A DNA stretch of 64,000 nt, from positions 96,918 through 160,917 of the IMG/VR virus record IMGVR_UViG_3300026549_000035, one strand, 5' to 3'. Both the position numbers and the translations under genes were made by a program. Below, one piece after another: positions 4,893 through 52,867 of this stretch (position 1 is its first letter; the number at the start of each line of letters is the position of its first letter). This DNA is from a virus. Under the pieces are notes generated by a model that made no database searches, was not told the origin of the DNA, and saw nothing but the letters and a program-made list of their open reading frames with translations.

Positions 4893-5132
4893 CTATTCTT
4901 CTTTAGGTTCATCTTCTTCATCTTTCTTCTCTGGAGGAACTAATTCAGTAATTAATTTTGCTAAAACATTATATTTATCTGTTTTGCCAGTATGATATCT
5001 CTTATAGGTTCGAAAAAATTCTTCTTTAGTATCAGGATTATTGGCGATAATTTTACCGCCAATTAATCCATTTTTATTAGAAGGTTCATCAAAAAATTGA
5101 TATTCTCCAACAGAAATCAATAAATTTTTCAT
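4893..5132 (-). CDS. Hypothetical acidic 79-aa protein.
   Basis: Intact ORF; its ATG overlaps the gyrA TGA stop. Confidence 0.4.
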   Translation of the reverse strand: MKNLLISVGEYQFFDEPSNKNGLIGGKIIANNPDTKEEFFRTYKRYHTGKTDKYNVLAKLITELVPPEKKDEEDEPKEE

Positions 5133-7246
5133 ACTTTGCTTACCCCCGTAACAACATTTCCTTTTATAACAATATTTCCCATAGTAGTTTTAGAAGCTGT
5201 TTCTGGTGGTAAATCTTCAGCTTTTACACAAAGAGAACTCTTATCTCCACAAACTAAAATTATATCTCCATCTGAAACTAAGCAAGCTCCCGCAGTATCT
5301 GCATCTTTAGCATATATTGTTCCTCGTCCATTTCTAGCTTGAACTGGAAATGCAGACAATTTAACTCTACGTGCCAACCCACTTCTAGAGAAAAATGCAA
5401 TTGAATCATTAATATCACGAATTGGTAAAGCCGCAATAACTTCATCATCATCGTGAAGATTAATACCTTTATATCCCATAGTTACTCTTCCAGAAGCAGG
5501 GAAATCTAACCCCTTACATCTAATGGCATATCCATTTTTAGATAAAATAATAATATTTTCTTCATTTGCTAAAAAGACCGAAGCAATACTATCTCCTTCA
5601 TGAAGATTTAAAGCTTTTATACCGCCCTTTTTCTTAGTTCCAACATATTCCTCTAAAGAACTTCTTTTTACATATCCGTTTTTAGTTACAAATATTACAT
5701 ATTTAGCATCTGTATCTCTATAGATTGAGTAAATAACTTCAGGTCTTTCTCCTTGTTCCATAGAAACTAATGCTCTAACAGGAGTTCCTTTAGATGTATT
5801 AGTTCCTTCTGGAATATCATCAACAATTAATCGATACATATTTCCTTTATTTGTAAATATCATTAAACTATCTACTGTATTTGTTCGAAGAACCATTGAA
5901 GTAATATCATCTTGCGTTTTTATTCCTTTTCCACCGCGTCTCTGAGTTCTGAAAGACGTTGACTTAATTCTTTTAATGCTACCCCCGTCCGTGAGGACCA
6001 CAACACATTTTTCTGGTGGTATGGCAGCAATCTTTTTCTCCTCATTGTCTTTTGGCTCGGCAAGTTGTGTCAACTCCGTTCTTCTATCATCACCATATTT
6101 ATCTACAATATTTTGAAGTCTTTTTTTCAATTCATCTAATGGATTTGTTAAAATCGCATTAAAGTGTTTAATTTGTTCTTTCAACCCTTGAATTTCTTCA
6201 TTTAATTCAATCTTTTCAAGGTTTGCTAATTTACCAAGCTTCATATCTGTAATGGCTTGAGATTGCGCTTCAGAGAATTTATATTTCGCGCAAAGTTCTT
6301 GACGAGCGGCTGCCGCAGACTTTGATTGTTTAATTAACGCAATAATATTATCTATATCTTCTAATGCTTTTAATAAACCTTCATTAATTTCAAGCTTTGC
6401 TTTAGTTTTATTTAAATCATATTCAGTTTCTCTGCGGATACATTCATTGTTATGTTCAACGTAAATTTTACAACAATCTTTTAAATTTAATTCAGTAGGA
6501 GTTTTACCGACCAATCCAACCATATTATAAGAAAAAGATGTTTGTAAATCAGTATTTTTAAATAATTGAAAAATAGTTTTATTTAGATTAGCATCTTTTT
6601 CACATTCAAGGACTAATCTAAATCCTTTTTTACGAGTACTTTCATTTCGGATATGTTTAATTCCACTTACATCCCCAGCATCACAGGCTTTTCCAATTTG
6701 TTCCATAAGAGATTCAGTTCCTACACCATATGGAATTTCATAAAATATAATATTATTTCCTTCAATATCATATTTACCACGAAGCTTAATACTACCATGA
6801 CCAGTACGCATAATAGTTGGAATAATATCTTTATTAATAATCAATCCACCTGTTGGAAAATCAGGACCAGGTAACATAGGTTCTTTACCATCTATATAAT
6901 CAAAAATAGCTTGCGCTACTTCTCTAAGATTATGTGGTGCCCAATTACAAGCCATAGCAACGCCTATGCCTGCGTTTGGATTACATAATAAGTTAGGAAA
7001 ATAAGAAGGTAAAGTCACTGGCTCATCTTTAGTTTCAGAATAATTAGGAACAGTATCTACTACTCCTTTTTTCATTCCTACCAACATACCATCTTCTACT
7101 AAACGACTTAATCTTGCTTCAGTATAACGATAAGCCGCAGGACCATCACCATCTCGATTTCCTTTAGAACCATGAAAATCAATTAAAGGATAGCGCATTA
7201 CCCATTCTTGTGAAAGTCTAACTAAAGTTCCATAAATAGAACTATC
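5129..7246 (-). CDS. gyrA: DNA gyrase/topoisomerase II A subunit, exon 2 (ends at TGA).
   Basis: GyrA-like: AAYRYTEARL; a beta-pinwheel C-terminal domain; a 706-aa uninterrupted frame with no TAG. Confidence 0.8.
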   Translation of the reverse strand, partial: DSSIYGTLVRLSQEWVMRYPLIDFHGSKGNRDGDGPAAYRYTEARLSRLVEDGMLVGMKKGVVDTVPNYSETKDEPVTLPSYFPNLLCNPNAGIGVAMACNWAPHNLREVAQAIFDYIDGKEPMLPGPDFPTGGLIINKDIIPTIMRTGHGSIKLRGKYDIEGNNIIFYEIPYGVGTESLMEQIGKACDAGDVSGIKHIRNESTRKKGFRLVLECEKDANLNKTIFQLFKNTDLQTSFSYNMVGLVGKTPTELNLKDCCKIYVEHNNECIRRETEYDLNKTKAKLEINEGLLKALEDIDNIIALIKQSKSAAAARQELCAKYKFSEAQSQAITDMKLGKLANLEKIELNEEIQGLKEQIKHFNAILTNPLDELKKRLQNIVDKYGDDRRTELTQLAEPKDNEEKKIAAIPPEKCVVVLTDGGSIKRIKSTSFRTQRRGGKGIKTQDDITSMVLRTNTVDSLMIFTNKGNMYRLIVDDIPEGTNTSKGTPVRALVSMEQGERPEVIYSIYRDTDAKYVIFVTKNGYVKRSSLEEYVGTKKKGGIKALNLHEGDSIASVFLANEENIIILSKNGYAIRCKGLDFPASGRVTMGYKGINLHDDDEVIAALPIRDINDSIAFFSRSGLARRVKLSAFPVQARNGRGTIYAKDADTAGACLVSDGDIILVCGDKSSLCVKAEDLPPETASKTTMGNIVIKGNVVTGVSKV

Positions 7247-8158
7247 CATTTTTTTGTTATCGTAAAAGTTTTTTATCTTTTACTTCTTATACTTTTATTT
7301 GTATAAGTTCAGCATATCTTTTTAATTTGGTTTGCTAATTCCATTTTTCTATCTAATGCAACATCATTATCTTGATATAAATGAGATATTATTTTTGGAA
7401 TAGCATCTTTTGTAGAACGATATTCAATTTTAAAAGTATTATAATGAGAATATATTTTTAAAGGTTTAATATTTAATTGTTCTTGAAAATAATTCTATAC
7501 AAAAGATAAACATTCAAAAGAACCTACTAAACCAATTCCATTTAAGTTTTCTCTAATAAATCCATCTCCATCCCATAAACCTCTAATAAAATCTCTATAA
7601 TAAATTTTATCTATGGGTGGAATATGCTCTTTTCCACTTTTAGATTGTTCTACATTTAATTTTATCAAGGCATTTTTTATTTCTATTGAATATGTTGATA
7701 CATACCACTGAATATTTCCAGTTGTATTATGAATTTCACTTTTTAGCATAGTTAAATCTCCACCTAAAAAATTAATAAATTTTTCTAAATGATGCTTATC
7801 TTTATTTCCAAGTTTAATTCGCAACATTCTTCTGTCTATATTCAAATATCCATCTGCGATAATAAAACCTAACCAATAAGCTTTTTCCGCAGAATCTATA
7901 GTATCAAAAATATGCCTATTATATTCTTTCATGATAATTCCTCCAATATTAATATGGATGTTTTTACATCCTCACTAATACTGGAAATTATTATAAATAT
8001 TTTTAAAATTTTTGACCAAATTATCGCGGCCTCGTGGGTAGATTATATCTTTTCACTACCTATGCGTTGCCCCTGACTATACTTTGTATAGCCTTCGGTT
8101 CGGGTTAACATTTCAGCTTTCCCGCTTAATTCCGCGATTTACCCACGGCAACAGTTCT
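7247..8158 (-). mobile_element. Group I intron in gyrA, carrying a LAGLIDADG homing endonuclease.
   Basis: Exon 1 ends ...NWHPHG after a U; the intron ends in G (...atg) directly before DSSIYGTLVRL. A TAA stop follows the exon-1 read-through; flanks of roughly 60 and 225 nt are left for the RNA core. Confidence 0.6.
7309..7932 (-). CDS. LAGLIDADG homing endonuclease (two motifs), intron-encoded; 1 in-frame TAG.
   Basis: YWLGFIIADGYL and RGLWDGDGFI. The track ORF 7495..7932 continues through TAG to TGA at 7309. Confidence 0.7.
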
Positions 8159-8407
8159 ACCGTGCGGATGCCAGTTTGCCATAGTATTACCAACAATATT
8201 AGCGCATTTGACATGAGGTTTTTTAGAACTAAAGCCTTCATCATATGCGTCATAGAGAATTCTTTTTGCTACTGGTTTTAAACCAGTTTTTGCATCTGGA
8301 ATAGAACGGTCAGTATTAACAGCAACCGCATATTCTATAAAATTTGTTCCAAGTTCATCAACTAAATCAGTTAAAATCTCATTCGGCATTATAAGTTGCC
8401 TCCTCAC
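8159..8407 (-). CDS. gyrA: Gyrase A subunit, exon 1.
   Basis: IPDAKTGLKPVAKRILY...KKPHVKCANIVGNTMANWHPHG, the conserved GyrA N-terminus. Confidence 0.75.
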
Positions 8408-9020
8408 TATGTTCTTTAATGTATATCTTTCTTGGGGTAACCGCAGTTCCCATTAAATTATCAAATAGCTTTTTAGCAGCAGTTGCATCACTAATTGTAA
8501 CCTGCTTAATAATTCTCTGTTCTGGATCAGCTAATGTTTCTTCTGTTTCATCAACATCTAATTCTCCTAATCCTTTAAATCTATTCACAACATATTTTTT
8601 ACCGAAATTTTCTTTTCTATATTTATCTAATGCAATATCATCTTTAAGATATTGATAACCTTTTGAAGTAGTTATTTTATAGAGCGGAGGAACGCCCGCA
8701 TAGATAAAGCCATCTTCAATTAATTGTGGGCAGAAACTCCAAATAAAAGTGTAAAATAGATTTTTGATATGCGCTCCATCAGAATCAGCATCACTCATAA
8801 TAATAATTTTTCCATATCTTATTTTATCTTTATCATAAACAACTTTCATTGTCTTTAAATCAATATCTAATCCAAAAGCGTCAATCATAGTCATAATTTC
8901 AGCGTTCTTTTGAATTTTATCAACGGTTGCTTTATAACAATTTAGTATTTTTCCTCTTACTGGAAGAACTGCTTGATATTCATTATTACGTGCTTGTTTT
9001 AGGTTACCTGAAGCACTATC
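8379..9020 (-). CDS. gyrB: Gyrase B subunit, exon 2 (Toprim and C-terminus).
   Basis: DSASGNLKQARNNEYQAVLPVRGKILN...IIIMSDADSDGAHI...RFKGLGE. Confidence 0.75.
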   Translation of the reverse strand, partial: DSASGNLKQARNNEYQAVLPVRGKILNCYKATVDKIQKNAEIMTMIDAFGLDIDLKTMKVVYDKDKIRYGKIIIMSDADSDGAHIKNLFYTFIWSFCPQLIEDGFIYAGVPPLYKITTSKGYQYLKDDIALDKYRKENFGKKYVVNRFKGLGELDVDETEETLADPEQRIIKQVTISDATAAKKLFDNLMGTAVTPRKIYIKEHSEEATYNAE

Positions 9021-10126
9021 CGTGTTTATCTTATATTTCTATAAGCACTGACTAACTCTTCACTCCGGTTTGTCAAGCCATCATCGTGTCCTCTATTTCC
9101 AATCACGTATCAATAGTAATTGTACTCTCCGTCTCACCGGAGATAGTCGATACAGCTTATTTTATATCTTTATAGGTTTTTCTCGTTATGGCATTATATA
9201 CGGTGCTCCAGGCTCTATCTGGAGCATATTTTTGCCAAATCTATTTAGGACTAATACCATTATCATAATCATATCTCATTTGTTTTACTTGTTCTTCGGT
9301 AAAACATTTTTTATTATTTGCGGCTACCTCAGAAGAATTTGCCTTTGCATTATGAGAATGCCAGTATTTATTTTCTTCAGTATGATACTCTGGATAAATA
9401 TTTTTCCAAGTATCAAACCACCAAACCTTCTAAAGACCTCTTTTTGAAATTTTATCTTTGTATTCTTCATAAACTATTTTGAATGGAATATGAGCATTAT
9501 AACATTCTCTAATATATCTTACATCTTCCTCATTCAATAATGCTCGACCATTTTTTGAACCAATCTAACTCCTATTTGGATTTTCATCTCCACCTGGAGT
9601 AGCATTATATCCATTGGTATAAGAATTATAATAATTTATAAAGAATTTTTCCATCTAATCAAGAAGTTCTTTAGAATATTCTTCTGGAGATAATGTTGCG
9701 ATAATTTCATAATTAAAATTATCAAAACCATATTTTCTTACTGCTTGATGAAATTGACTATTATAGTCATTTGCTTTATCATTATAAACAGAAGATTTAT
9801 GATTATATTGACGTCTTTCTATATCAATACTCTATCCAATATAACATTTATGATTTATTTTATTTTCATATTTATAAATTCCTATCATATCACTCTCTCC
9901 CTTCATTAAGATATAAAGGAGATACTGATACGATTTACTGGTTTTGTCCTAAAGATATAAAATCTTGCCACGGGATTGCCTTCGCCTAAACATATTTTGA
10001 CATATATGTATAACGGTAAGGTTTCCCCGTTAGCCTGCGGTTTATCAAAAATTCCTAGGAATTTTTCTTTTTCCACAAACCCCGCTGATAAAGCGGTAAA
10101 AAGGATTAGGGCAATAGTTTTCACTT
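9021..10126 (-). mobile_element. Group I intron in gyrB, carrying a GIY-YIG homing endonuclease.
   Basis: Exon 1 ends ...YITEG then a TGA read-through. Exon 2 starts exactly at the DSA of the universally conserved EGDSAGG motif, and the intron ends in G. Confidence 0.6.
9161..9905 (-). CDS. GIY-YIG homing endonuclease (intron-encoded); 4 in-frame TAG.
   Basis: GIYKYENKINHKCYIG-TAG-SIDIERR; the TAG falls at the invariant Gln of the YIGQS motif. Confidence 0.7.
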
Positions 10127-11398
10127 ACCCTCAGTTATATATATTTCACATTTTTTACGATCTTTACTAAAACAATCTGCCAGTTTAGAATCAAATTTTA
10201 ATGCTTTTTCTTTTTTATTTTGTTTCTCACGAATTGCATCTCTAGCTTTTGCTGCCGCTTCGCGAGCCTTTTTAGCCATTTTTGCTTTATCTGCGATTAT
10301 CTTAATATCTTTTTCATTTGCTGCCAACCATATACGAAGCTCTTCTGCAATTGCCGCTGTATATGGTGTCATTTCAAGTTTAGTAATACGAGTTTTTACC
10401 TGAGCATCATATGCAACATTTGGCGCAGTGATATTAAATACAATATACAATCCTTCTTGGATATCATCACCAGAAAGATTTCCATCACTATCTTTTAACC
10501 ATTTTTTCTCTTTAAAAAATCTATTAAATTCTCTTGTTAAAAGAGCTTTAATCTGAGTAATATGAGGTCCAACAGAAGTTAAACCTGTATTAACATATGG
10601 AACCATTGTCATTGAATAATTAGATGTATAAGTCATAACCATATCAATTTTATTTTTACCATTTTGATAATTTAAATTAAAACGATTATCATATCCAATT
10701 AATTCTTTATTTGCAACAGCGTCATCTACTAAATCATTTAATCCTTTTTCTGAAAAATAAGTTGTTTTTTCGCCAGAATTATTTAATTCAATAGTTAGAC
10801 CTGGGCAAAGACAAGCGATAGTTTTAAAAAGATTTTTTACTTCTTGAATATTTACTTTTGGATTAGTAAAAAATTCTTCACTTGGTTGCCACTGAACTAA
10901 AGTTCCAGTAGTATTATTTTCCCAAGCTCCAGATTCTCTTTTCTAAAAAACTCCTTCTTTAAACCATAAATGCTCATATTGTCCATCTCGATAAGTAATT
11001 ACTTCAAGCCAATGACTTAAAAAGGTTGTAATTTTACTACCAATACCAAAAGAACCTAAAGAAGTTCCTTCATAGGTTCCATCTTCACGATATTTTCCTG
11101 ATGTATTTAATACGCTAAAAGCAGCTTCAAGAATTGTTTTTCCATCATCTCGAAAGCTATTTGGAATAAAACCTTGTCCATTATCTTCTACGATACAAAC
11201 TTTATCAGCAATATCTATTTTAATTTTATTACCATGTCCTAGTCTAAATTCATCTACAGCATTAGAAAATATTTCTACTAATAACTATGTAGAATAAGTG
11301 GTATCTCCTGCGTAGACCCCTGGTCTAAGACGAGTAAACTCTAGAGGTGAAAGAGATTCGATACTTTCTTCATTATATAAAGTTTTATCTTGTATCAT
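10127..11398 (-). CDS. gyrB: Gyrase B subunit, exon 1 (ATPase and transducer); at least 1 in-frame TAG.
   Basis: MIQDKTLYNEESIESLSPLEFTRLRPGVYAGD...EIFSNAVDE...LADCFSKDRKKCEIYITEG. Confidence 0.7.
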
Positions 11399-11449
11399 TT
11401 TATTTCTCCTTTAATATTCATTATTTTCTATTTTTAAATCTATTTCTTC

Positions 11450-11635
11450 CTAATTAATAACCATTCCTTCAGTATATGCTAATCCTAATATTTCACATTC
11501 TTTAAATTCATTTTGTATAACTTTCATATATCGACATACTTTATCAGATGGAAAAACTGAATTACCATCTGATTTAAAAGGCTCTTTAATTAAAATAACA
11601 TTATTAGGATAAAAAATAGTTTCTAAGCTTTTCAT
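11450..11635 (-). CDS. Hypothetical 61-aa protein.
   Basis: ORF with an RBS. Confidence 0.35.
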   Translation of the reverse strand: MKSLETIFYPNNVILIKEPFKSDGNSVFPSDKVCRYMKVIQNEFKECEILGLAYTEGMVIN

Positions 11636-11691
11636 TTTTTTCTCCTTGTTTTTATATTTATATTATAACATTTTTTTATATTAAATGCAAG

Positions 11692-11919
11692 TTATTTTTC
11701 TGGTTTTATAGATAACAAATAATTATATACTTTTTCCCAATCTTTAAGCTGTATTTCTAATCCCTGTGGAACGGTAAAAACTGCGTTATTAGGAAAGAGT
11801 TCCTTTAAATCAGTATGAATCTTTTCTATTTCTTCTAAGTCAAAATTTTCGATTTGTGGCTTTACTAAAACAATATCATTAGGTTTAATATTAATTGTTT
11901 CTAAAATATATTTTTCCAT
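11692..11919 (-). CDS. Hypothetical 75-aa protein.
   Basis: ORF with an RBS. Confidence 0.4.
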   Translation of the reverse strand: MEKYILETINIKPNDIVLVKPQIENFDLEEIEKIHTDLKELFPNNAVFTVPQGLEIQLKDWEKVYNYLLSIKPEK

Positions 11920-11943
11920 TCACTTTCTCCTTCCTGTAGCTAA

Positions 11944-12360
11944 CTAATCTGCTACTTCATTCCATATGATATTATTATGTCCTTTTACTTTATATATTTC
12001 TATTTGATTTCCATTTTGTAGATGTTTAAAAAACGGAATAATTAAATCTAAATTTTCTGGAGTTTGGTTATCAGATTTTAACCAGCCTCTTTTTTCCCAA
12101 GAGAACATCCAATTAGTTAAAGTATTTACGCAATATGCGCTATCAGAGTAGACTGTGAGAGGTTTTTGACCTGCGGCCGCAGGTTCTCCATATTTTAAAA
12201 AAGCCCATAAAATAGCTTTTAGTTCTTCTCTATTATTAGTTGTGTTTTTACTTCGTTCACTATAATAAGTGATAGGTTTTTCATTATCATCTAAGACAAC
12301 AACTCCAAATCCTCCTGGACCGGGATTACCTTGACAACTTCCATCAGTATAACAAATCAT
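11944..12360 (-). CDS. rnhA: Ribonuclease HI.
   Basis: YTDGSCQGNPGPGGFGVVV...REELKA..., the RNase H fold motifs. Confidence 0.8.
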   Translation of the reverse strand: MICYTDGSCQGNPGPGGFGVVVLDDNEKPITYYSERSKNTTNNREELKAILWAFLKYGEPAAAGQKPLTVYSDSAYCVNTLTNWMFSWEKRGWLKSDNQTPENLDLIIPFFKHLQNGNQIEIYKVKGHNNIIWNEVAD

Positions 12361-12767
12361 TAGAAAGGAAAATCCTCCTTTTTCTTTTCGTCTTTTATAT
12401 GAACAATAGATATTTTTATATCATCTGAGATTGCTAACACTCTATTAGAACCATTAATAAAAGTTTCATAAATAGCATCAAGAGGATTTTTTATTAATTC
12501 TACATCTTCATTTTCAGAGAACTATATTAATATAATATCCTTGTCTTTATTAAAATTTAATTCTTGTATATCCATTTTTTTCCTCCAAATTAATTGTCTT
12601 TTTATTAAAATTTTTAATATAATATTTTTAGAGTTTAAAAATACATATTTACTTTTATATTATTATTATATTAAAAAATTTAATAAAAATCAAGAGAAAA
12701 AAAATAAAAGGATTAGAATAAAACAAATTTAAAATTGAATTATTCTAATCCTTTATTCTATTAATTA

Positions 12768-14414
12768 TTTACATAAAGCTGAGAAAGTGTTTTTCCCTGC
12801 AATACCATCTGCATATAAGCCTTTACTGTTTTGATAAGACTAAACCGCAGATTTAGTTCCTCCTCCAAAGATTCCATCAAATCCATTTGTTGAATAACCA
12901 TTACAAATTAAAAGACCTTGTAAAGTTTTAGTAATATTTCCCCAATCTCCGTATTGAATATTTACTATTGCATTATTAGTTAAATTTCCATATTGTCCAT
13001 CAACCGCAAGTCCAGCTCCAAATTGTTCATTAAGTTCAGTTTGTAAAGCTTTTACTAAAGCAGCTTTAGTTAAAGGACCATATTGTCCATCAATAGAAAG
13101 ACCAGTGTTATAATTATTATTAAGCCATCTTTGAACTTCTGCAATAGAGGGGTCTCCTTCGTCATTATAATCATAAGAAGGTGTTTCATCTGAAGAAGAT
13201 GATTGTCCATACTTTGGACGACAGCAACAAGAAATATTAGATTTATAACGAGTCTTTAATTGAAAATCATCACATTCTGTTCCGCCATTATTAGCTCCAA
13301 TACAAGTAATAGTTCCATCATTATTTACAGCTACGCAAAGCTCAACATGGTCAAGAGTATTATAACCAAGAGAACTGGCTGGCCAGTAAGAAGAACGTTC
13401 TTTACTCCAAGAGAAAATTACCAAGTCTCCTGGTTGCACATCGTCTGGGCCATATAATTGTCCTGCATTATAAAAATTTTTACATAACGAGCCGCAATCA
13501 GCTACTTTTCCTCCTGGAATTAAATCAAAAGCTCCTGCTTTATAGAATAAATACATCATTCCAGCGCAGCAGCAAGCCACGGCATTAATACTATCATCAA
13601 AGCCACCATACCAATACATAATATCACAGCAGCTACCATGTTCATCATGATTTAATAAACTATAAGCGGTTTTAATTACAGTATCTTCACTGATTTCATT
13701 TTTTATAATTGTTGAATTACTTGTAGAAGAATCAGTTTCTTTTTTATTAATAATTGATGGATAATCTATATAGGCTTTATTTTTATCAATAGTTCCTATT
13801 CCAGAAATAGAATTGCTTTCAAGAACATTAGTTTCTCCACCATATTGCCATAATCCTAATCTATTATATTTATATAAACTAGGACTAGAACTCCATTGAG
13901 CAAACCAACAATCATAATCCTTTTGGATGTGTTCAGAAACCATATTATCAAGAACTGAGTATCCAGTGTATATCATTGGATAATATTCTAAATCTTTTAG
14001 ACCATCAAGAACAATAGTTGATACTTTTGTTAAATTACTTTTATTCCAGCCTCCGTTTTTAGATACATAGTTAGAAGGTTCAATATCTAATGCTATTGGT
14101 AAAGTTGGATAATGTCCTTTTTTCGCTTCTTGTCTAAGAAGTCTATCAATGTGTGCTAATTCACTTTTAGCTTCTTGTTCAGAGCAAGCATATGAGAATA
14201 AATATACTCCCCAAGGCATATCAAGCGCTTCTGCTTTTGCGACATTAGTAGCAAAATATTCATCATCTTGAGATGTCATATCATCTCCGTATCCACATCG
14301 AATCATAACCCAATCAAAGCCAGCGTTTTTAATTGTTTTAAAACTAACATCCCCATTAAATTCAGAAACATCTACACCTTTTGTATTTTTAATATTAGCC
14401 ATATTATAATTCAC
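12768..14414 (-). CDS. Endolysin: GH25 muramidase, CHAP domain and three peptidoglycan-binding repeats. The third repeat lies beyond a TAG at 12840.
   Basis: N-terminal GH25 motifs (GVDVSEFNG...DWVMIRCGYG); a Cys/His CHAP segment; and QRWLNNNYNTGLSIDGQYGPLTKAAL repeats. After the TAG the frame continues as SYQNSKGLYADGIAGKNTFSQL. Confidence 0.75.
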
Positions 14415-14435
14415 CTCACTATAAAAATAAAAGTC

Positions 14436-14462
14436 TAGTAGTTAAAACTACTAGACTTACAT
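14436..14462 (-). terminator. Terminator hairpin after phoH, before the endolysin RBS.
   Basis: AGTCTAGTAG-TTTTAA-CTACTAGACT followed by TTTATTTTTAT on the minus strand. Confidence 0.5.
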
Positions 14463-14880
14463 TAAGTTCGCTATTTCAGCGATTCGACTTCTATGAATTT
14501 TCTTTAATTCAATTTCACCATAAATATCTTTACCTCGAAAGACCTAAGATGCTCTACGCATACCGTTTCGAGAGCCTTCATAATCAATTAAATCAACTTG
14601 ACTCTTGGTATCTCCATCAAGAATAACTATTGAATCTTCTCCAACTCTTTGAAGAGCTAATTTTAATAATTCTACATCTAAATTCTAAGCTTCTGTTATA
14701 TAAATACCTGCGTTCATACCAGAAGTATCGTAACCTCTAATATCACTCATAGGTAGTAAAATTAATTTATTTTCATCAATCAATTGTTCTACTCCAATAG
14801 TGCCTCCTAGTTTACTAGCTAAAAAATTACCAATTTGAGAATCTAATAATTTTTCATCTTTAGACCCTGGATAAACATAA
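14456..14880 (-). CDS. phoH: PhoH-like ATPase (PIN-PhoH, PhoH2 type), exon 2; 2 in-frame TAG.
   Basis: YVYPGSKDEKLLDSQIGNF...IYITEA-TAG-NLDVELLKL...GDTKSQVDL. The TAG lies at the Q of the PhoH DEAQN Walker B motif. Confidence 0.7.
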
Positions 14881-16176
14881 CATTATATTTTTCAATATAA
14901 ACCTGACTATATCTTATTCTAAACTTTGCTTTAATTTTAAATAAAGCTAATATTTTCTATTTAAATGAATTGGACAATCTTTATATAAAATATTTAAAAT
15001 AGATAAAACCTATTTTCTACCTCTCCATTCAGCATGCCAAGCAGAAGTAAAAAATATTTTATTAGATTTTTTCTTATGAATAATCTTATCTATTTCTTTT
15101 TGAAAATCTTTTACTACAGATTCATAATATGAAGTAAATCCAAAAGTAACATCAGTAGAATAATTCTCAGAACAATAAAAATTTCCATCACCATCAAATA
15201 ATCCTAATAAAAAAGATGTAATATATTGTTTTGGAATTTTTTCAAAAGGAATATGTTTTGAAAGATAAGTTTTATTAGGAACAATTCCAAAATTAATTAA
15301 ATCTTGATATATCTATTCGCTAACAAATTCAACAGAGCAACAAACGCTATTTATTCTTTTGTCATAAATAATTTTAGAATCAATCTATAAACATTCTTTA
15401 AATTTTTCTAATATTTCTTTATCTTTTTCCTATAACTATAATCTAATTCTCCCTGTATGACGATAATGATCAATATTGCCATCTGTATATAAAAAACCTA
15501 GCCAATAGGCTTTTTCGTGTGAATTAATTTCTGAAAAATAATTATTTTTTATTCGTTTATTAATTCTATTATAGTTTCTTTCAAAACCATGTTCTTCTTT
15601 TATTCTTCTTAAAGTTGTTTTATCTAAAAGATATTTTTTAGATAATTCAATATCAGAAATACCATTTTTTAAATCTTTTTCATATTCTATTAACTATTTT
15701 TTTGATAATTCTTTTTTCTTTCTTCCGCCTCGAATAGTAATATTATTTTTTGTTAAGATTTTTTGAATTCGATAATAACTAAAAGGGTATTCCTACGATA
15801 ATTTTTTTATAGATTTACCATTTAAATATTCTTCAATAATTTTATTTTCCATAATATTTTTAAAACTCTTTTATTTTTTCTATATAATTATGGAAAAATT
15901 TTAATTTTACTTTTCGTTTTTTGTCCAAAACTTTTCGTTTAGAATCCACGCGCTTCGGTATATATACCTACTCTACTTAGTTCATTTTTTTTATAAAATG
16001 CTGTTCGATAGTCGATGAACCTTTTTCTATTCGAAACTTGGCTGCTGATTACCCAATTCTTATAATTTTTAAACATTCACGCTTAATTTTATTTCATATT
16101 GACGTTGTAGTTTATAAGACTCTAAGGGAGTTCCAGCAATTCACGTGGTTTTATACTTGAGCCTTATCCATTTTTT
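14881..16176 (-). mobile_element. Group I intron in phoH, carrying a LAGLIDADG homing endonuclease.
   Basis: Exon 1 ...AKLG+tt after U, then TAA; the intron ends in G, and exon 2 t|tat gtt restores LGFYVYPGS, matching the PhoH LGFLPGD motif. Confidence 0.55.
14913..15852 (-). CDS. LAGLIDADG homing endonuclease with an N-terminal HTH; 9 in-frame TAG.
   Basis: Manual translation MENKIIEEYLNGKSIKKLSQ...AYWLGFLYTDGNI...LLGLFDGDGNF.... Confidence 0.65.
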
Positions 16177-16177
16177 A

Positions 16178-17021
16178 ACCCAAGTTTTGCAGAATTTCTA
16201 GTAGCTACTGTATTACAAAAGATAACAATTTGATTAATTTTTCCTCTTTCTAATAAAGAAAATAAATAACCTAAAGCTAAATGAGATTTTCCTGTTCCCG
16301 CAGAACCTTTTATAATGGTAATTTTATTATGAGTTAAACTATCAGCAACCATAGCTTGATAAATATCTCCTTTAAAAGGCTTAATTTCACCTAATTGCTT
16401 AGAAGAAAAAACTCGATTATATGATAATTGACGGAAGTTTTCTCCTGTCCAACATAAAGTATCTACTCTATCTCCATCAGTATTATAAATATTTAAATAT
16501 TGATTAATAAGTATTTGTAATTTTTCTCCATATTCTTCAGGATTTGAATAAAAATCTGCCATTTCTTCATCTTCAAGCTATATTTCTAAATAGCCAGAAT
16601 AACTATCTTCATTATCTTCATTAACACTTAAAATCTGACAAGGTTTTAAAAAGATAGTTGCAATCATCTTTAAAGAAAGGTCGTTTGTATAAAAATAAAA
16701 ATCTTTTATTTTATATTTTTCTTGATAATCAATTGCGGACCCAAGGATACGCATATCATTATTTATTTCTAAATCCTACTCTTTTAAGCAGTTAATCATA
16801 TGGTCTTTATAAATATAACAAATAAACTTACTATTGTTTTCATCTAAAACGTGTAATAATTTCCGAGCTATATATTTTGTATGAGAATCTTTATTTATTG
16901 AAACTTTTATATGCTCCAATTCTTGTAATGTAATAGAAGAAATTACGATAGTATCATTTTCATTTTCAAATAATTGTTCAGCCATTAGTAATAAACTGCT
17001 TGTATCATAAAACTTAATCAT
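16178..17021 (-). CDS. phoH: PIN-PhoH ATPase, exon 1 (PIN domain plus Walker A); in-frame TAG present.
   Basis: PIN-like MIKFYDTSSLLLMAEQL...; GSAGTGKSHLALGYLFSL Walker A. Confidence 0.65.
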
Positions 17022-20093: not shown

Positions 20094-20213
20094 ATCTTCA
20101 ATATTATTAAAACCACGAGGCTCATATACAAAACCACGATTATGACTGAAGTGGCTAATGCAAATCTGAAGTGACCCAAATATTTTTTTGTGTGCTCAGA
20201 TTTGACATATCAT

Positions 20214-20917
20214 CATCTCCTTTTTTTAGATGTAATAGCATCTATTACATTCATTCCATTTTTTAATCTTCTATAAACAGTTGTTCTACTAATATTATAA
20301 ATTTTACACCAATCAGTAATATTATGTCGTTCTCCATTTATGATTGGATTTTTATTATTATATTCTTTAATTACTTCTTGACTAGTTAAAGAATCTGGTT
20401 CAATTATATTATTATCTTTGTCAATTTTACGAATAATATAATCTTTAATTTTAGAATATCTTTTATTGCCTTTTATACATTGATGAATAGAACTTCTATC
20501 TGTCTTTAAGGCAATAGCTGCTTCACTAACTGAATCGTATATAGTTTGAGATAAATCATTAATATTAATAGCTACTACTTTAGTTTTTAGATTATTTCTA
20601 ATATTTTCATCTGATAAAGCATTATGTGTTTCACAACTTTGATTATAGCCTTTAATATCAGACTAATATTTTTGGATTTGTTGTTTTTCATATTCTTCCA
20701 TATCAAATCGAGTTTTAAAATTAGTAGCAATTATTTCAAAATAAAAATTTTCAATACCATATTTTCTAAAAGCACAATAGAGAGGATAATTATAAGTTAT
20801 TGAATTTTTATTTTGAGAATTACTTTTATGTTCTCGCCATCTTCTTTCTGGGTTATTGCTAGACCCAATATAGACTTTATTATTAATTAAATTTGTAATT
20901 TTATAAACTGAAAACAT
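20214..20917 (-). CDS. Free-standing GIY-YIG homing endonuclease (I-TevI-like, C-terminal DNA-binding domain); 1 in-frame TAG.
   Basis: VYKITNLINNKVYIGSSNNPERRWREH; the frame continues after the TAG at 20663. Confidence 0.6.
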
Positions 20918-43968: not shown

Positions 43969-44043
43969 TGGCGCCGGTGCTGGGAGTCGGACCCAGACAT
44001 GCGGTTTTAGAGACCGCCGCACTAACCGTTATGCAACACCGGA
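43969..44043 (-). tRNA. Amber suppressor tRNA (anticodon CUA), probably Gln-accepting.
   Basis: TCCGGTGTTGCATAACGGTTAGTGCGGCGGTCTCTAAAACCGCATGTCTGGGTCCGACTCCCAGCACCGGCGCCA: anticodon loop CU-CUA-AA, G73, weak 1:72 pair (both Gln-tRNA hallmarks), CCA encoded. Promoter copy 7 sits immediately upstream. Confidence 0.75.
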
Positions 44044-48113: not shown

Positions 48114-49068
48114 ATATTAGCAGATTAAATCTTTTACAAGATCTTTATCTGCTTTTTTTCTTAACTAAATCAAAAAATAAAAATGAATTTGAAAAATTTG
48201 CGTGAACCTTCGCTCTACAATTTTTATATTTCCTGCTTGTTAGACTACCGAGGAAACAAGTCTGAGCATTAGGGGAGCGACCCCGACACTTCTTGCCCCA
48301 GTCCCAAAGGACCAATTCTCGGAGAGGAATGTTTACCTCCAACTTTCACCCGCCGTTCAGAAGTTTTTATTCATAAACTGCTATCTATTTTCCATTAATC
48401 GTTGCTTATGGGCTACTCGCGCGTTGACCTTACCTTATAGCCTTGTTACCAAGACATCACAGCAGACCCTCTTATTAGCATTTCCTTGGTTTGCAAAGGT
48501 TGCTAAGCCTATTACCTAACAAGGATTCTTCCCCATCTGGGGCGTCTATTATGAGGGCGATAAGACACCGTCCTAGCTTAGAAAATATAACTTGCGCTAT
48601 TTACCTTCGGCGTTTTACTTTTATAAAACAATTTCAATTTATCACTAAAAAGAAATTTCACAATATTTCAAAGTATCCTTTGAAGTTGTTTAGCCCGCAC
48701 CTTAGTGTGGTAAATACCTCAGCACAATGGCATTTGCTCTGCACTGAGTTACGCAAATTTTCAAAGTTCTTGTAAGAAATTAGTGGAAACAGCATCGCCA
48801 CGAGAAGGCTTCTTACTTGATGCCATATGAGAGGTTTTAAACCATCCGAATGGGAGTCGAACCCATCCTGTGGGGAATCAAACCTTGCTTACCTCTCGGG
48901 TTGCCCCGCAACCTCATGAAACGATTTTAAGGTTAATCGAGAACCTTGGTAGTGTGGCGCTTGCCCAAAGGCTTACCTCGCGACCGCAAACCAATCTTTA
49001 AATGCTGGACTCTTCTAATCCTACATCCTACCTCTTTTGGTCTTACACTTGCTATTAAGCATGATGCC

Positions 49069-52091: not shown

Positions 52092-52867
52092 AATAAATCT
52101 CCTTAGTTAAAAAGATTTGCAATCATTAAACCAATCTATATAATACCTACTATTAGAATGAAGAAAGAAAAATTACCTTCTTTCATTTCATTAGTTATCT
52201 TAGAAAAGAATTTTCGCATTTTTTCTTCCCCCATTTCTTTTTATTTATATATTATTTTTATTGCTTTTATTTAAAAACATTAAATGAACTCCCATTTTCT
52301 TGAATATAAGCAATAGTTTCTAAAACAGTTTTCTTTCCATACTTTTTTACTAAAGCATCAAAATAATAACTATCATTATATCCAGTATTACCAATAAAAG
52401 GATATATATATTTTCCTACATCTTTCAACAGAATTTCATCCATTATTATTATCTCCTTTTTTTCTAGACACACTATAATCTTTGGTCAAATACGTTGCCA
52501 ACTGCGCCATTTTACAAAATGAAGTAAAAGTCGGATTCGAACCGACGACACCCTGATGTTACAGAATATAATTTTTGCTGTGCGTGTCTGAAGGATATAA
52601 AAAATATATAATTATTTGGCGGGTGCGACTTTCTCCCGCATCTCTCAGATTGTAACAATATAAACAATCTTGTCATACCATCGGCGTATAGGCGTCGCGG
52701 AATCTTCCTACTTCAAATAATTATAAACGTAAGATTGATAAGGAACTCAGGTCTGCCTTATATCTTTTGCATATGTGAAGAGCGACTTCACGCAAATGTA
52801 GAGAGCCTCTATTTTTTCTACTACAATCTTACTTAGCATTGATTGAAGGCTAATGCTCAATACCTTC

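Follow-up and report, generated by a model that had tools for sequence, protein, structure and literature searches.

Probable group I introns carrying homing endonuclease genes in gyrA, gyrB and phoH of a large phage

The 64,000-nucleotide (nt) stretch of DNA analysed here, called the window throughout, covers positions 96,918 to 160,917 of the IMG/VR virus record IMGVR_UViG_3300026549_000035. Its source genome is large and phage-like, and the majority of the open reading frames (ORFs) in the window lie on the minus strand, among them those of the gyrase genes gyrB and gyrA and of phoH. Each of these three genes is interrupted by a long insert. Guide pairings of the P1 and P10 type, a terminal G, a covarying core and presence/absence polymorphism among relatives together lead us to regard the three interruptions as, very probably, group I introns, each carrying a homing endonuclease gene.

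The boundaries of exons and introns, all on the minus strand, were set by string search and translation. In gyrB, exon 1 (10127..11398; 424 codons, two in-frame TAG) closes with ACT GAG GGT (TEG), the intron measures 1106 nt (9021..10126), and exon 2 (8379..9020) opens with GAT AGT GCT TCA GGT (DSASG). The 77 codons of gyrA exon 1 (8159..8389) end in CAT CCG CAC GGT (HPHG) and are followed by a 912-nt intron (7247..8158) and by exon 2 (5129..7246), which starts with GAT AGT TCT (DSS) and contains no TAG. The third gene, phoH, has an exon 1 (16178..17021) encoding the PIN domain and the first part of the PhoH domain, with two in-frame TAG and CTT GGG T at its 3′ end, an intron of 1302 nt (14876..16177), and an exon 2 (14457..14875) that begins TT TAT CCA GGG (F-YPG) and also holds two in-frame TAG. 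In all three genes, exon 1 ends in T and the intron in G, and the exon-1 frame meets a stop codon 1–11 codons inside the insert. Joining the exons gives uninterrupted frames that read ITEG|DSASG in GyrB, WHPHG|DSSIYG in GyrA and AKLGF|YPGSK in PhoH. The insertion points fall in the most conserved codons of the genes, namely EG|DS of the Toprim domain in gyrB, HPHG|DS beside the DNA-cleavage region in gyrA, and LGF|YPG in phoH.

Domain matches to Pfam run across the joins. Spliced GyrA matches DNA_topoisoIV (2e-123) over residues 28–445, spanning the junction at 77/78, spliced GyrB matches DNA_gyraseB, Toprim and GyrB_C continuously over its junction, and the same holds for the spliced phoH product and PhoH (2e-25). 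With TAG read as glutamine, phoH starts at 17021, 459 nt upstream of an ATG at 16562, and the spliced gene then encodes a 420-amino-acid PIN-PhoH fusion with four in-frame TAG (PIN_4 4.5e-11, PhoH 6.6e-25). An earlier note on this DNA, made from the letters and a list of ORFs, had proposed three genes interrupted by group I introns with different endonucleases, introns that follow U and end in G, and exon-1 frames that run into stops within the intron. These claims agree with what we find, after correction of two details: the first base of the phoH intron must be 16177 instead of 16176, and GyrB continues after EG with DSASG, not DSAGG, the motifs HPHG|DS, LGF|YPG and EG|DS themselves being as described. 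The range it had assigned to the three genes, 7247–16176, also holds unrelated RNase H, endolysin and small ORFs, and phoH exon 1 extends beyond it to 17021 when TAG is Gln. As a separate observation, the gyrA (8164-8159/7246-7241) and gyrB (10131-10127/9020-9015) junctions share the sequence GGT|GATAGT, coding for G|DS, despite unrelated ribozymes and endonucleases.

How TAG is read bears on both exons and intron ORFs. A suppressor tRNA with anticodon CUA lies at 43969..44043 on the minus strand (ARAGORN; Rfam tRNA 51.6 bits), within an array of 33 tRNA genes at 43–62 kb of the window. TAG codon 38 of gyrB stands opposite Gln in 42 of 45 relatives and TAG codon 19 of the ORF in the gyrB intron in 29 of 36, and Pfam domain matches continue through TAG codons, the PIN_4 match of phoH crossing one. 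Because TAG falls at conserved Gln positions and a tRNA(CUA) is present, we conclude that the whole phage reads TAG as Gln (genetic code 15). This tRNA is required for the TAG codons of the endonuclease ORFs and also for those in gyrB and phoH.

The inserts carry the pairings expected at the ends of a group I intron. A guide sequence sits a few nt inside the 5′ intron end and pairs with the last 5–7 bases of exon 1 to form P1: exon CACGGU with guide GCCGUG in gyrA, AGGGU with GCCCU in gyrB, and CUUGGGU with GCUCAAG in phoH, the terminal exon U being opposite G each time. The P10 strand lies 0–3 nt 5′ of the P1 strand, and P10, formed between intron and exon 2, has 6 bp in every case (AGAACU/AGUUCU in gyrA, ACUAUU/GAUAGU in gyrB, GGAUAA/UUAUCC in phoH). 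At their 3′ ends the introns read AUG (gyrA), CACG (gyrB) and UAUG (phoH), all three with a terminal omega-G. The helices follow in the order P3, P4-P5, P6, P7, one or two extra hairpins, P3′, P8, P7′ and P9, which is the group I topology with its P3/P7 pseudoknot. Extra hairpins between P7 and P3′ are typical of subgroup IA.

The elements of the three introns, again on the minus strand, can be placed as follows. In the gyrB intron, the P10 strand (10118-10113), the guide (10112-10108) and P3 (10105-10100 / 9094-9089) are followed by P6 (9969-9967 / 9156-9154), which encloses the ORF, by P7 (9149-9145 / 9053-9048) and by the hairpins P7.1 (9143-9126) and P7.2 (9122-9100), with the terminal G at 9021. 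The gyrA intron begins with its P10 strand (8158-8153), guide (8149-8144), P3 (8137-8132 / 8029-8024) and P4-P6 (8124-8072); P7 (8067-8061 / 7316-7311) and one extra hairpin (8060-8037) precede P8 (8023-8016 / 7330-7323), in this case the helix that encloses the ORF, and P9 (7307-7286), P9.1 (7283-7262) and the terminal G (7247) complete it. For the phoH intron we place the P10 strand at 16169-16164, the guide at 16162-16156, P3 at 16148-16142 / 15952-15946, P4 at 16137-16133 / 16048-16044, P7 at 16014-16010 / 14908-14903, an ORF-enclosing P8 at 15945-15937 / 14924-14916 and the terminal G at 14876.

Support for these cores comes from homologues found by scanning IMG/VR for exact copies of short core motifs, which returned at least 119 stretches of the gyrA type, 58 of the phoH type and at least 119 of the gyrB type; ORF-less members exist within the gyrA and gyrB types. 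In an alignment of 70 gyrA-type sequences, in which the ORF of the window copy was replaced by GAAA, 90.7% of cells are paired, vs 73.2% in shuffled alignments (none of 500 shuffles is as high as the real one) and 32–41% when the strands are slid, and 41 pairs show compensatory change. Four pair types occur in P3 of this type, which is 99.8% paired; P7, the helix of the pseudoknot (A(C)GCAUA/UAUGCU, in which one C bulges out), is paired in 100% and switches between AU and GC (44/26), and P8 is 80.7% paired with covariation at 8 of 8 pairs. Among 84 distinct gyrB-type sequences, aligned with the ORF deleted, 91.8% of cells are paired vs 39–47% when slid; covariation in the long-range helices P3 and P6 spans the ORF, which assigns the gyrB ORF to the P6 loop. 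The phoH type, with six aligned sequences, has 96.4% of cells paired and compensatory change at 16 pairs. In the window copies the core helices pair perfectly or near-perfectly and agree with the family consensus. By sequence, the ribozymes fall into three families that are common in phage metagenomes. Two features of another gyrA core model were discarded: a P3 of GUUGCC/GGCAAC, which overlaps the guide sequence, and a P7 of UCAG/CUGA, for which covariation gave A(C)GCAUA/UAUGCU instead.

All three introns contain an ORF of the homing endonuclease kind on the minus strand, LAGLIDADG in gyrA, GIY-YIG in gyrB and LAGLIDADG in phoH, exactly the families the earlier note had named. The gyrA ORF, in the P8 loop (7309..7932; 207 amino acids, one TAG at codon 146; Pfam LAGLIDADG_3 2.8e-8), has the double motif of the monomeric type (LGFIIADGY, IRGLWDGDG), and its final codons overlap P8′, J8/7 and P7′. 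That of gyrB, in the P6 loop (9157..9888; 243 amino acids, five in-frame TAG; Pfam GIY-YIG 7e-5), matches the catalytic domain of I-TevI (PDB 1MK0) at 1.9e-6; its N-terminus, MIGIYKYENKINHKCYIG(Q)S, fits a GIY-(X10)-YIG catalytic domain, and homologues with 33–41% identity are located in gyrB introns of relatives. The phoH ORF, in the P8 loop (14914..15852; 312 amino acids, eight TAG; Pfam LAGLIDADG_3 1.2e-8 and HTH_58), combines an N-terminal helix-turn-helix (HTH) with a double LAGLIDADG motif (LGFLYTDGN, LLGLFDGDG), and its 3′ end makes up P8′. Between the two LAGLIDADG proteins, identity is about 32%. Once TAG is read as Gln, all of these ORFs are intact.

LAGLIDADG domains are also known from inteins and certain group II introns, and both GyrA and GyrB are known intein hosts, so that an intein or a group II intron in place of a group I intron deserves mention. 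Such an origin would be extremely improbable here. The exon-1 frames stop almost at once, and each ORF begins at a start codon of its own, behind 238–325 nt of noncoding RNA. Pfam gave no Hint/intein and no reverse-transcriptase match among the intron products, Rfam gave no group II match, and both a domain V/VI structure and an in-frame fusion to Hint blocks are absent.

Are the three introns mobile? Relatives were collected as 60 IMG/VR contigs of at most 200 kb with the same gyrB-gyrA arrangement and with GyrA 44–98% identical (L-numbers denote contigs). Cultured phages offer no close counterpart: the locus had no megablast match among 50,697 phage records, and the closest GyrA in this set is about 44% identical, which together place the phage outside every cultured group. 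Comparison with intron-less homologues, a check proposed in the earlier note, yielded uninterrupted alleles for each of the three insertion points. Interruptions of gyrA and gyrB are absent from most of the 60 related loci; L001, with a GyrA 98% identical, is without both gyrase introns, and phoH is uninterrupted in L058 and L010. Introns at the same sites also occur, at gyrA HPHG|DS in L054, at gyrB EG|DS in L272 and L352, and in phoH of L006, where the endonuclease is 77% identical. The phoH site is probably also occupied in L183, L216, L220 and L226, judging from a nearly identical guide sequence. The gyrA intron of L054 (4251-5530) keeps the core and has its LAGLIDADG ORF between the 5′ splice site and the guide, not in P8; since the ORF sits elsewhere in the same core, ORF and ribozyme appear to have separate histories. 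Besides, in L056 (4838-6000) a second gyrA site, after IDWHG, is occupied by a related intron, and CACGGT is again the end of exon 1.

Within this clade, gyrB is a hotspot for introns: at least four sites, SFGIG|, EG|DS, the region of amino acids 506–513 and KG|LGE, are occupied, by one ribozyme family throughout (contigs with gyrB-site introns: L310/L319, L272, L352, L003/L007/L057/L039/L054, L011/L029/L050 and L357). Introns at EG|DS, at amino acids 506–513 and at KG|LGE carry a related GIY-YIG ORF. A ribozyme of this family is also present in the cultured Lactococcus phage LW81 (KY554777; L357, 2324-2633), where it fills the gap between two annotated gyrB coding sequences at KG|LGE, with P1 AAGGGU/GCCCUU and the terminal G present; the public annotation lacks the intron and gives gyrB as two coding sequences. 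LW81 resembles the window in that the ribozyme splitting its gyrB is of the gyrB-intron family (blastn match of 77% across P7-P7.2). It differs, as do its relatives AM1-AM12 and P1048, in the insertion site, which is KG|LGE near the C-terminus and not EG|DS, in being ORF-less and in using the standard code.

A number of observations count against group I homing introns at these sites. Splicing is predicted here from structure, and endonuclease activity is putative. P7 is invariant in the gyrB and phoH types, so that covariation is silent on this helix there and speaks for it in the gyrA type only. An ATG (7249-7247) abuts gyrA exon 2, which makes separate translation of a C-terminal fragment formally possible; no ribosome-binding sequence of the GGAGG type was noticed in front of it. 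Lastly, the Rfam check that the earlier note had suggested largely fails. A scan of the region, at the gathering score and at E ≤ 10, gave no group I match. In narrower searches the phoH intron has a partial match to the group I model RF00028 (16142-16003, model positions 56–151, 36.8 bits, E=4.5e-8 in a 321-nt search), but this lies below the gathering score of 50 bits, the gyrA and gyrB introns gave no match, and so none of the three attains that score.

These low or absent Rfam scores, together with the prediction of splicing from structure, could be taken to mean that the inserts are decayed relics, with ribozymes dead for splicing and three genes that are pseudogenes in this phage. We consider this very unlikely. 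The core helices of the window copies, as described above, pair as the family consensus does, the exon frames and conserved motifs are intact, and so are the endonuclease ORFs when TAG is Gln. Rfam, moreover, misses members of these families that are ORF-less: no match was obtained for intron-bearing relatives, nor for ORF-less homologues of the gyrA and gyrB types at the gathering score (gyrA type) or at E ≤ 1. Because the ORF-less homologues escape as well, the failure reflects the limited reach of the model and not a missing fold, and a low score is no sign of decay. In another IMG/VR contig, L074 (3624-3845), two different group I introns lie about 100 nt apart, of which the gyrA-type intron escapes Rfam and the phoH-like intron is detected at 94.5 bits.

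The ATG next to gyrA exon 2 yields a 706-amino-acid ORF (5129-7249), and public annotations of related cases, such as LW81 gyrB, give two coding sequences. Both facts would suit genes that are truly split by free-standing endonuclease insertions, their halves being separate polypeptides that assemble, for which the T4 topoisomerase gp39/gp60 and the split NrdA of phage Aeh1 are precedents. Yet each insert holds a complete ribozyme core with covariation and with guide pairing to both exon ends, the LW81 gap itself contains the same ribozyme with its P1, a start codon is absent at the junctions of gyrB exon 2 and phoH exon 2, and the interruptions cut through the tight motifs EGDS, HPHGDS and LGFxPG. 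True splitting of the genes is thus highly improbable in our assessment.

If the three inserts are group I introns, the transcribed RNA would fold and an external guanosine would attack the 5′ splice site, whereupon the freed 3′-OH of exon 1 would attack behind the terminal G, leaving intact gyrB, gyrA and phoH mRNAs. The endonucleases would be translated once tRNA(CUA) reads their TAG codons as Gln. The putative endonucleases could then cut the intron-less alleles of co-infecting relatives, and repair would copy the intron in, the process known as homing.

To what extent does the use of TAG set the endonucleases apart from their host genes? The earlier note had held that the gyrB and phoH endonucleases, packed with TAG, can be made only when the suppressor is active. 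Their five and eight TAG bear out the description, but the gyrA endonuclease carries one also; the first TAG is at codon 146 (gyrA), 19 (gyrB) and 20 (phoH), and all three ORFs need read-through. TAG is enriched in the endonuclease ORFs, with 14 TAG and 17 CAA/CAG, where the exons have 6 and 49 (odds ratio 6.7, p=5e-4). Among the host genes, gyrB has two TAG, phoH four and gyrA none. TAG does not cleanly gate the endonucleases alone, as gyrB and phoH also need the suppressor. Many large genes of the window are without any TAG, and another endonuclease-like ORF, at 508-1530, is TAG-rich.

A second feature shared by the three introns is the motif TT[T/A]GG[T/A]CAAAA (TTTGGACAAAA), which occurs in exactly three copies in the window, vs 0.69 expected, with one copy per intron (8020-8010, 9952-9942 and 15929-15919, minus strand), 54–88 nt upstream of the endonuclease start codons. 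It is also found in the introns of L006 and L054. In a generic sigma-70 scan, two of the three copies form a −35-like TGGACA/TGGTCA, followed after 17–18 nt by TAAAAT/TATAAT, and the motif may serve the endonuclease genes as a regulatory site or as a private promoter.

Taken together, the dense TAG in the endonuclease ORFs and the shared motif might constitute a code-dependent control module, a tentative idea that we think is rather doubtful. Before tRNA(CUA) accumulates, ribosomes could halt at codon 19–20 of the gyrB and phoH ORFs or at codon 146 of the gyrA ORF; halted there, they could never reach the P8′, J8/7 and P7′ strands that overlap the ORFs, so that the ribozyme could fold and splice, and later suppression, together with the private promoter, could permit endonuclease synthesis. 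A proposal that matches the view of the earlier note exists for the TGA-recoded Agate phages of the gut, in which the gene of a group I intron endonuclease favours the reassigned stop codon and in-frame stops are proposed to hold back the endonuclease until late infection (Borges et al., bioRxiv 10.1101/2021.08.26.457843). The idea of timing by stop codons is therefore not new. Both systems have an intron homing endonuclease of a phage gene that is enriched in the reassigned stop codon. They differ in the code, TAG to Gln here and TGA to Trp there, and in that the bias extends here across three introns of three ribozyme types, and two of three host genes carry TAG themselves, which weakens a simple early/late switch. 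For the present phage, timing by TAG is something that we infer.

Other parts of the window contain further genes of this kind. Three more GIY-YIG genes lie outside introns on the minus strand (20213-20917, ~46740-46080 and 508-1530); NUMOD/HTH domains are present in one, another sits within the tRNA array between tRNA-Thr and tRNA-Gly, and a further one is the C-terminal domain of a 340-amino-acid coiled-coil-like protein with 12 TAG. Two TAG-dense paralogous ORFs on the minus strand, 27058-27825 (five TAG) and 28737-29639 (ten TAG), show repeated CxCxCG motifs and share a C-terminal RFDFAI...(E/Y)DGxQH segment; they have no Pfam match and may represent another endonuclease-like mobile gene family. 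According to Rfam, the tRNA array also holds a full-length ROOL RNA (48184-48772; 332 bits) and a skipping-rope RNA (52611-52721; 43.8 bits), both on the minus strand.

That group I introns of phages carry LAGLIDADG or GIY-YIG genes has long been known and is textbook biology. The gyrB intron is reminiscent of the T4 td intron, in which I-TevI also lies in the P6 loop. The J3/4-P4 segment of the gyrB intron, CUAACGGGGAA...AAUCCCGUG, seems to resemble that of td, a likeness that serves as a lead. The td intron belongs to subgroup IA2, and we expect the same of the gyrB intron. The layout of the latter, with the extra hairpins P7.1 and P7.2 between P7 and P3′, is like that of td and of the Twort orf142 introns, and the I-TevI match of the GIY-YIG catalytic domain extends the likeness to the endonuclease. 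Differences from td are the host gene, gyrB in our case, two extra hairpins between the P3 5′ strand and J3/4, a P7.2 loop with the conserved sequence CUAUUGAUACG, and an ORF with five TAG sense codons. IA2 accounts for more than half of viral group I introns (PMC11835236).

A broader parallel is provided by the Jug phages, huge phages of the gut in which group I introns and endonuclease genes interrupt many essential genes (terL, nrdD, DNA polymerase), with about 18 introns per genome and splicing of 37 of 76 predicted introns confirmed by metatranscriptome reads (PMC12880540). Most Jug introns are about 206 nt long, presumably ORF-less, and were found with subtype-specific models (PMC12880540). 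Our phage and the Jug phages have in common that elements of these kinds interrupt essential phage genes. The genes that host them are different ones, gyrase being unmentioned in the main text of that report (PMC12880540). In the literature on phage introns in gyrase, gyrB and phoH we found no account of the three sites described here.

In conclusion, the introns at gyrA HPHG|DS, gyrB EG|DS and phoH LGF|YPG are new instances of a known selfish element and add no new principle. Three insertion sites are newly defined, along with candidate endonuclease targets, and gyrB of this clade emerges as an intron hotspot. The group I model of Rfam misses two ribozyme types that are abundant in phages, with the consequence that genes like LW81 gyrB are annotated as split. 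The phage also provides a second, TAG-based example of intron endonucleases rich in stop codons. If the dense TAG and the shared motif did form a control module, the spread of TAG-laden endonuclease genes could be confined to phages that are TAG-recoded.

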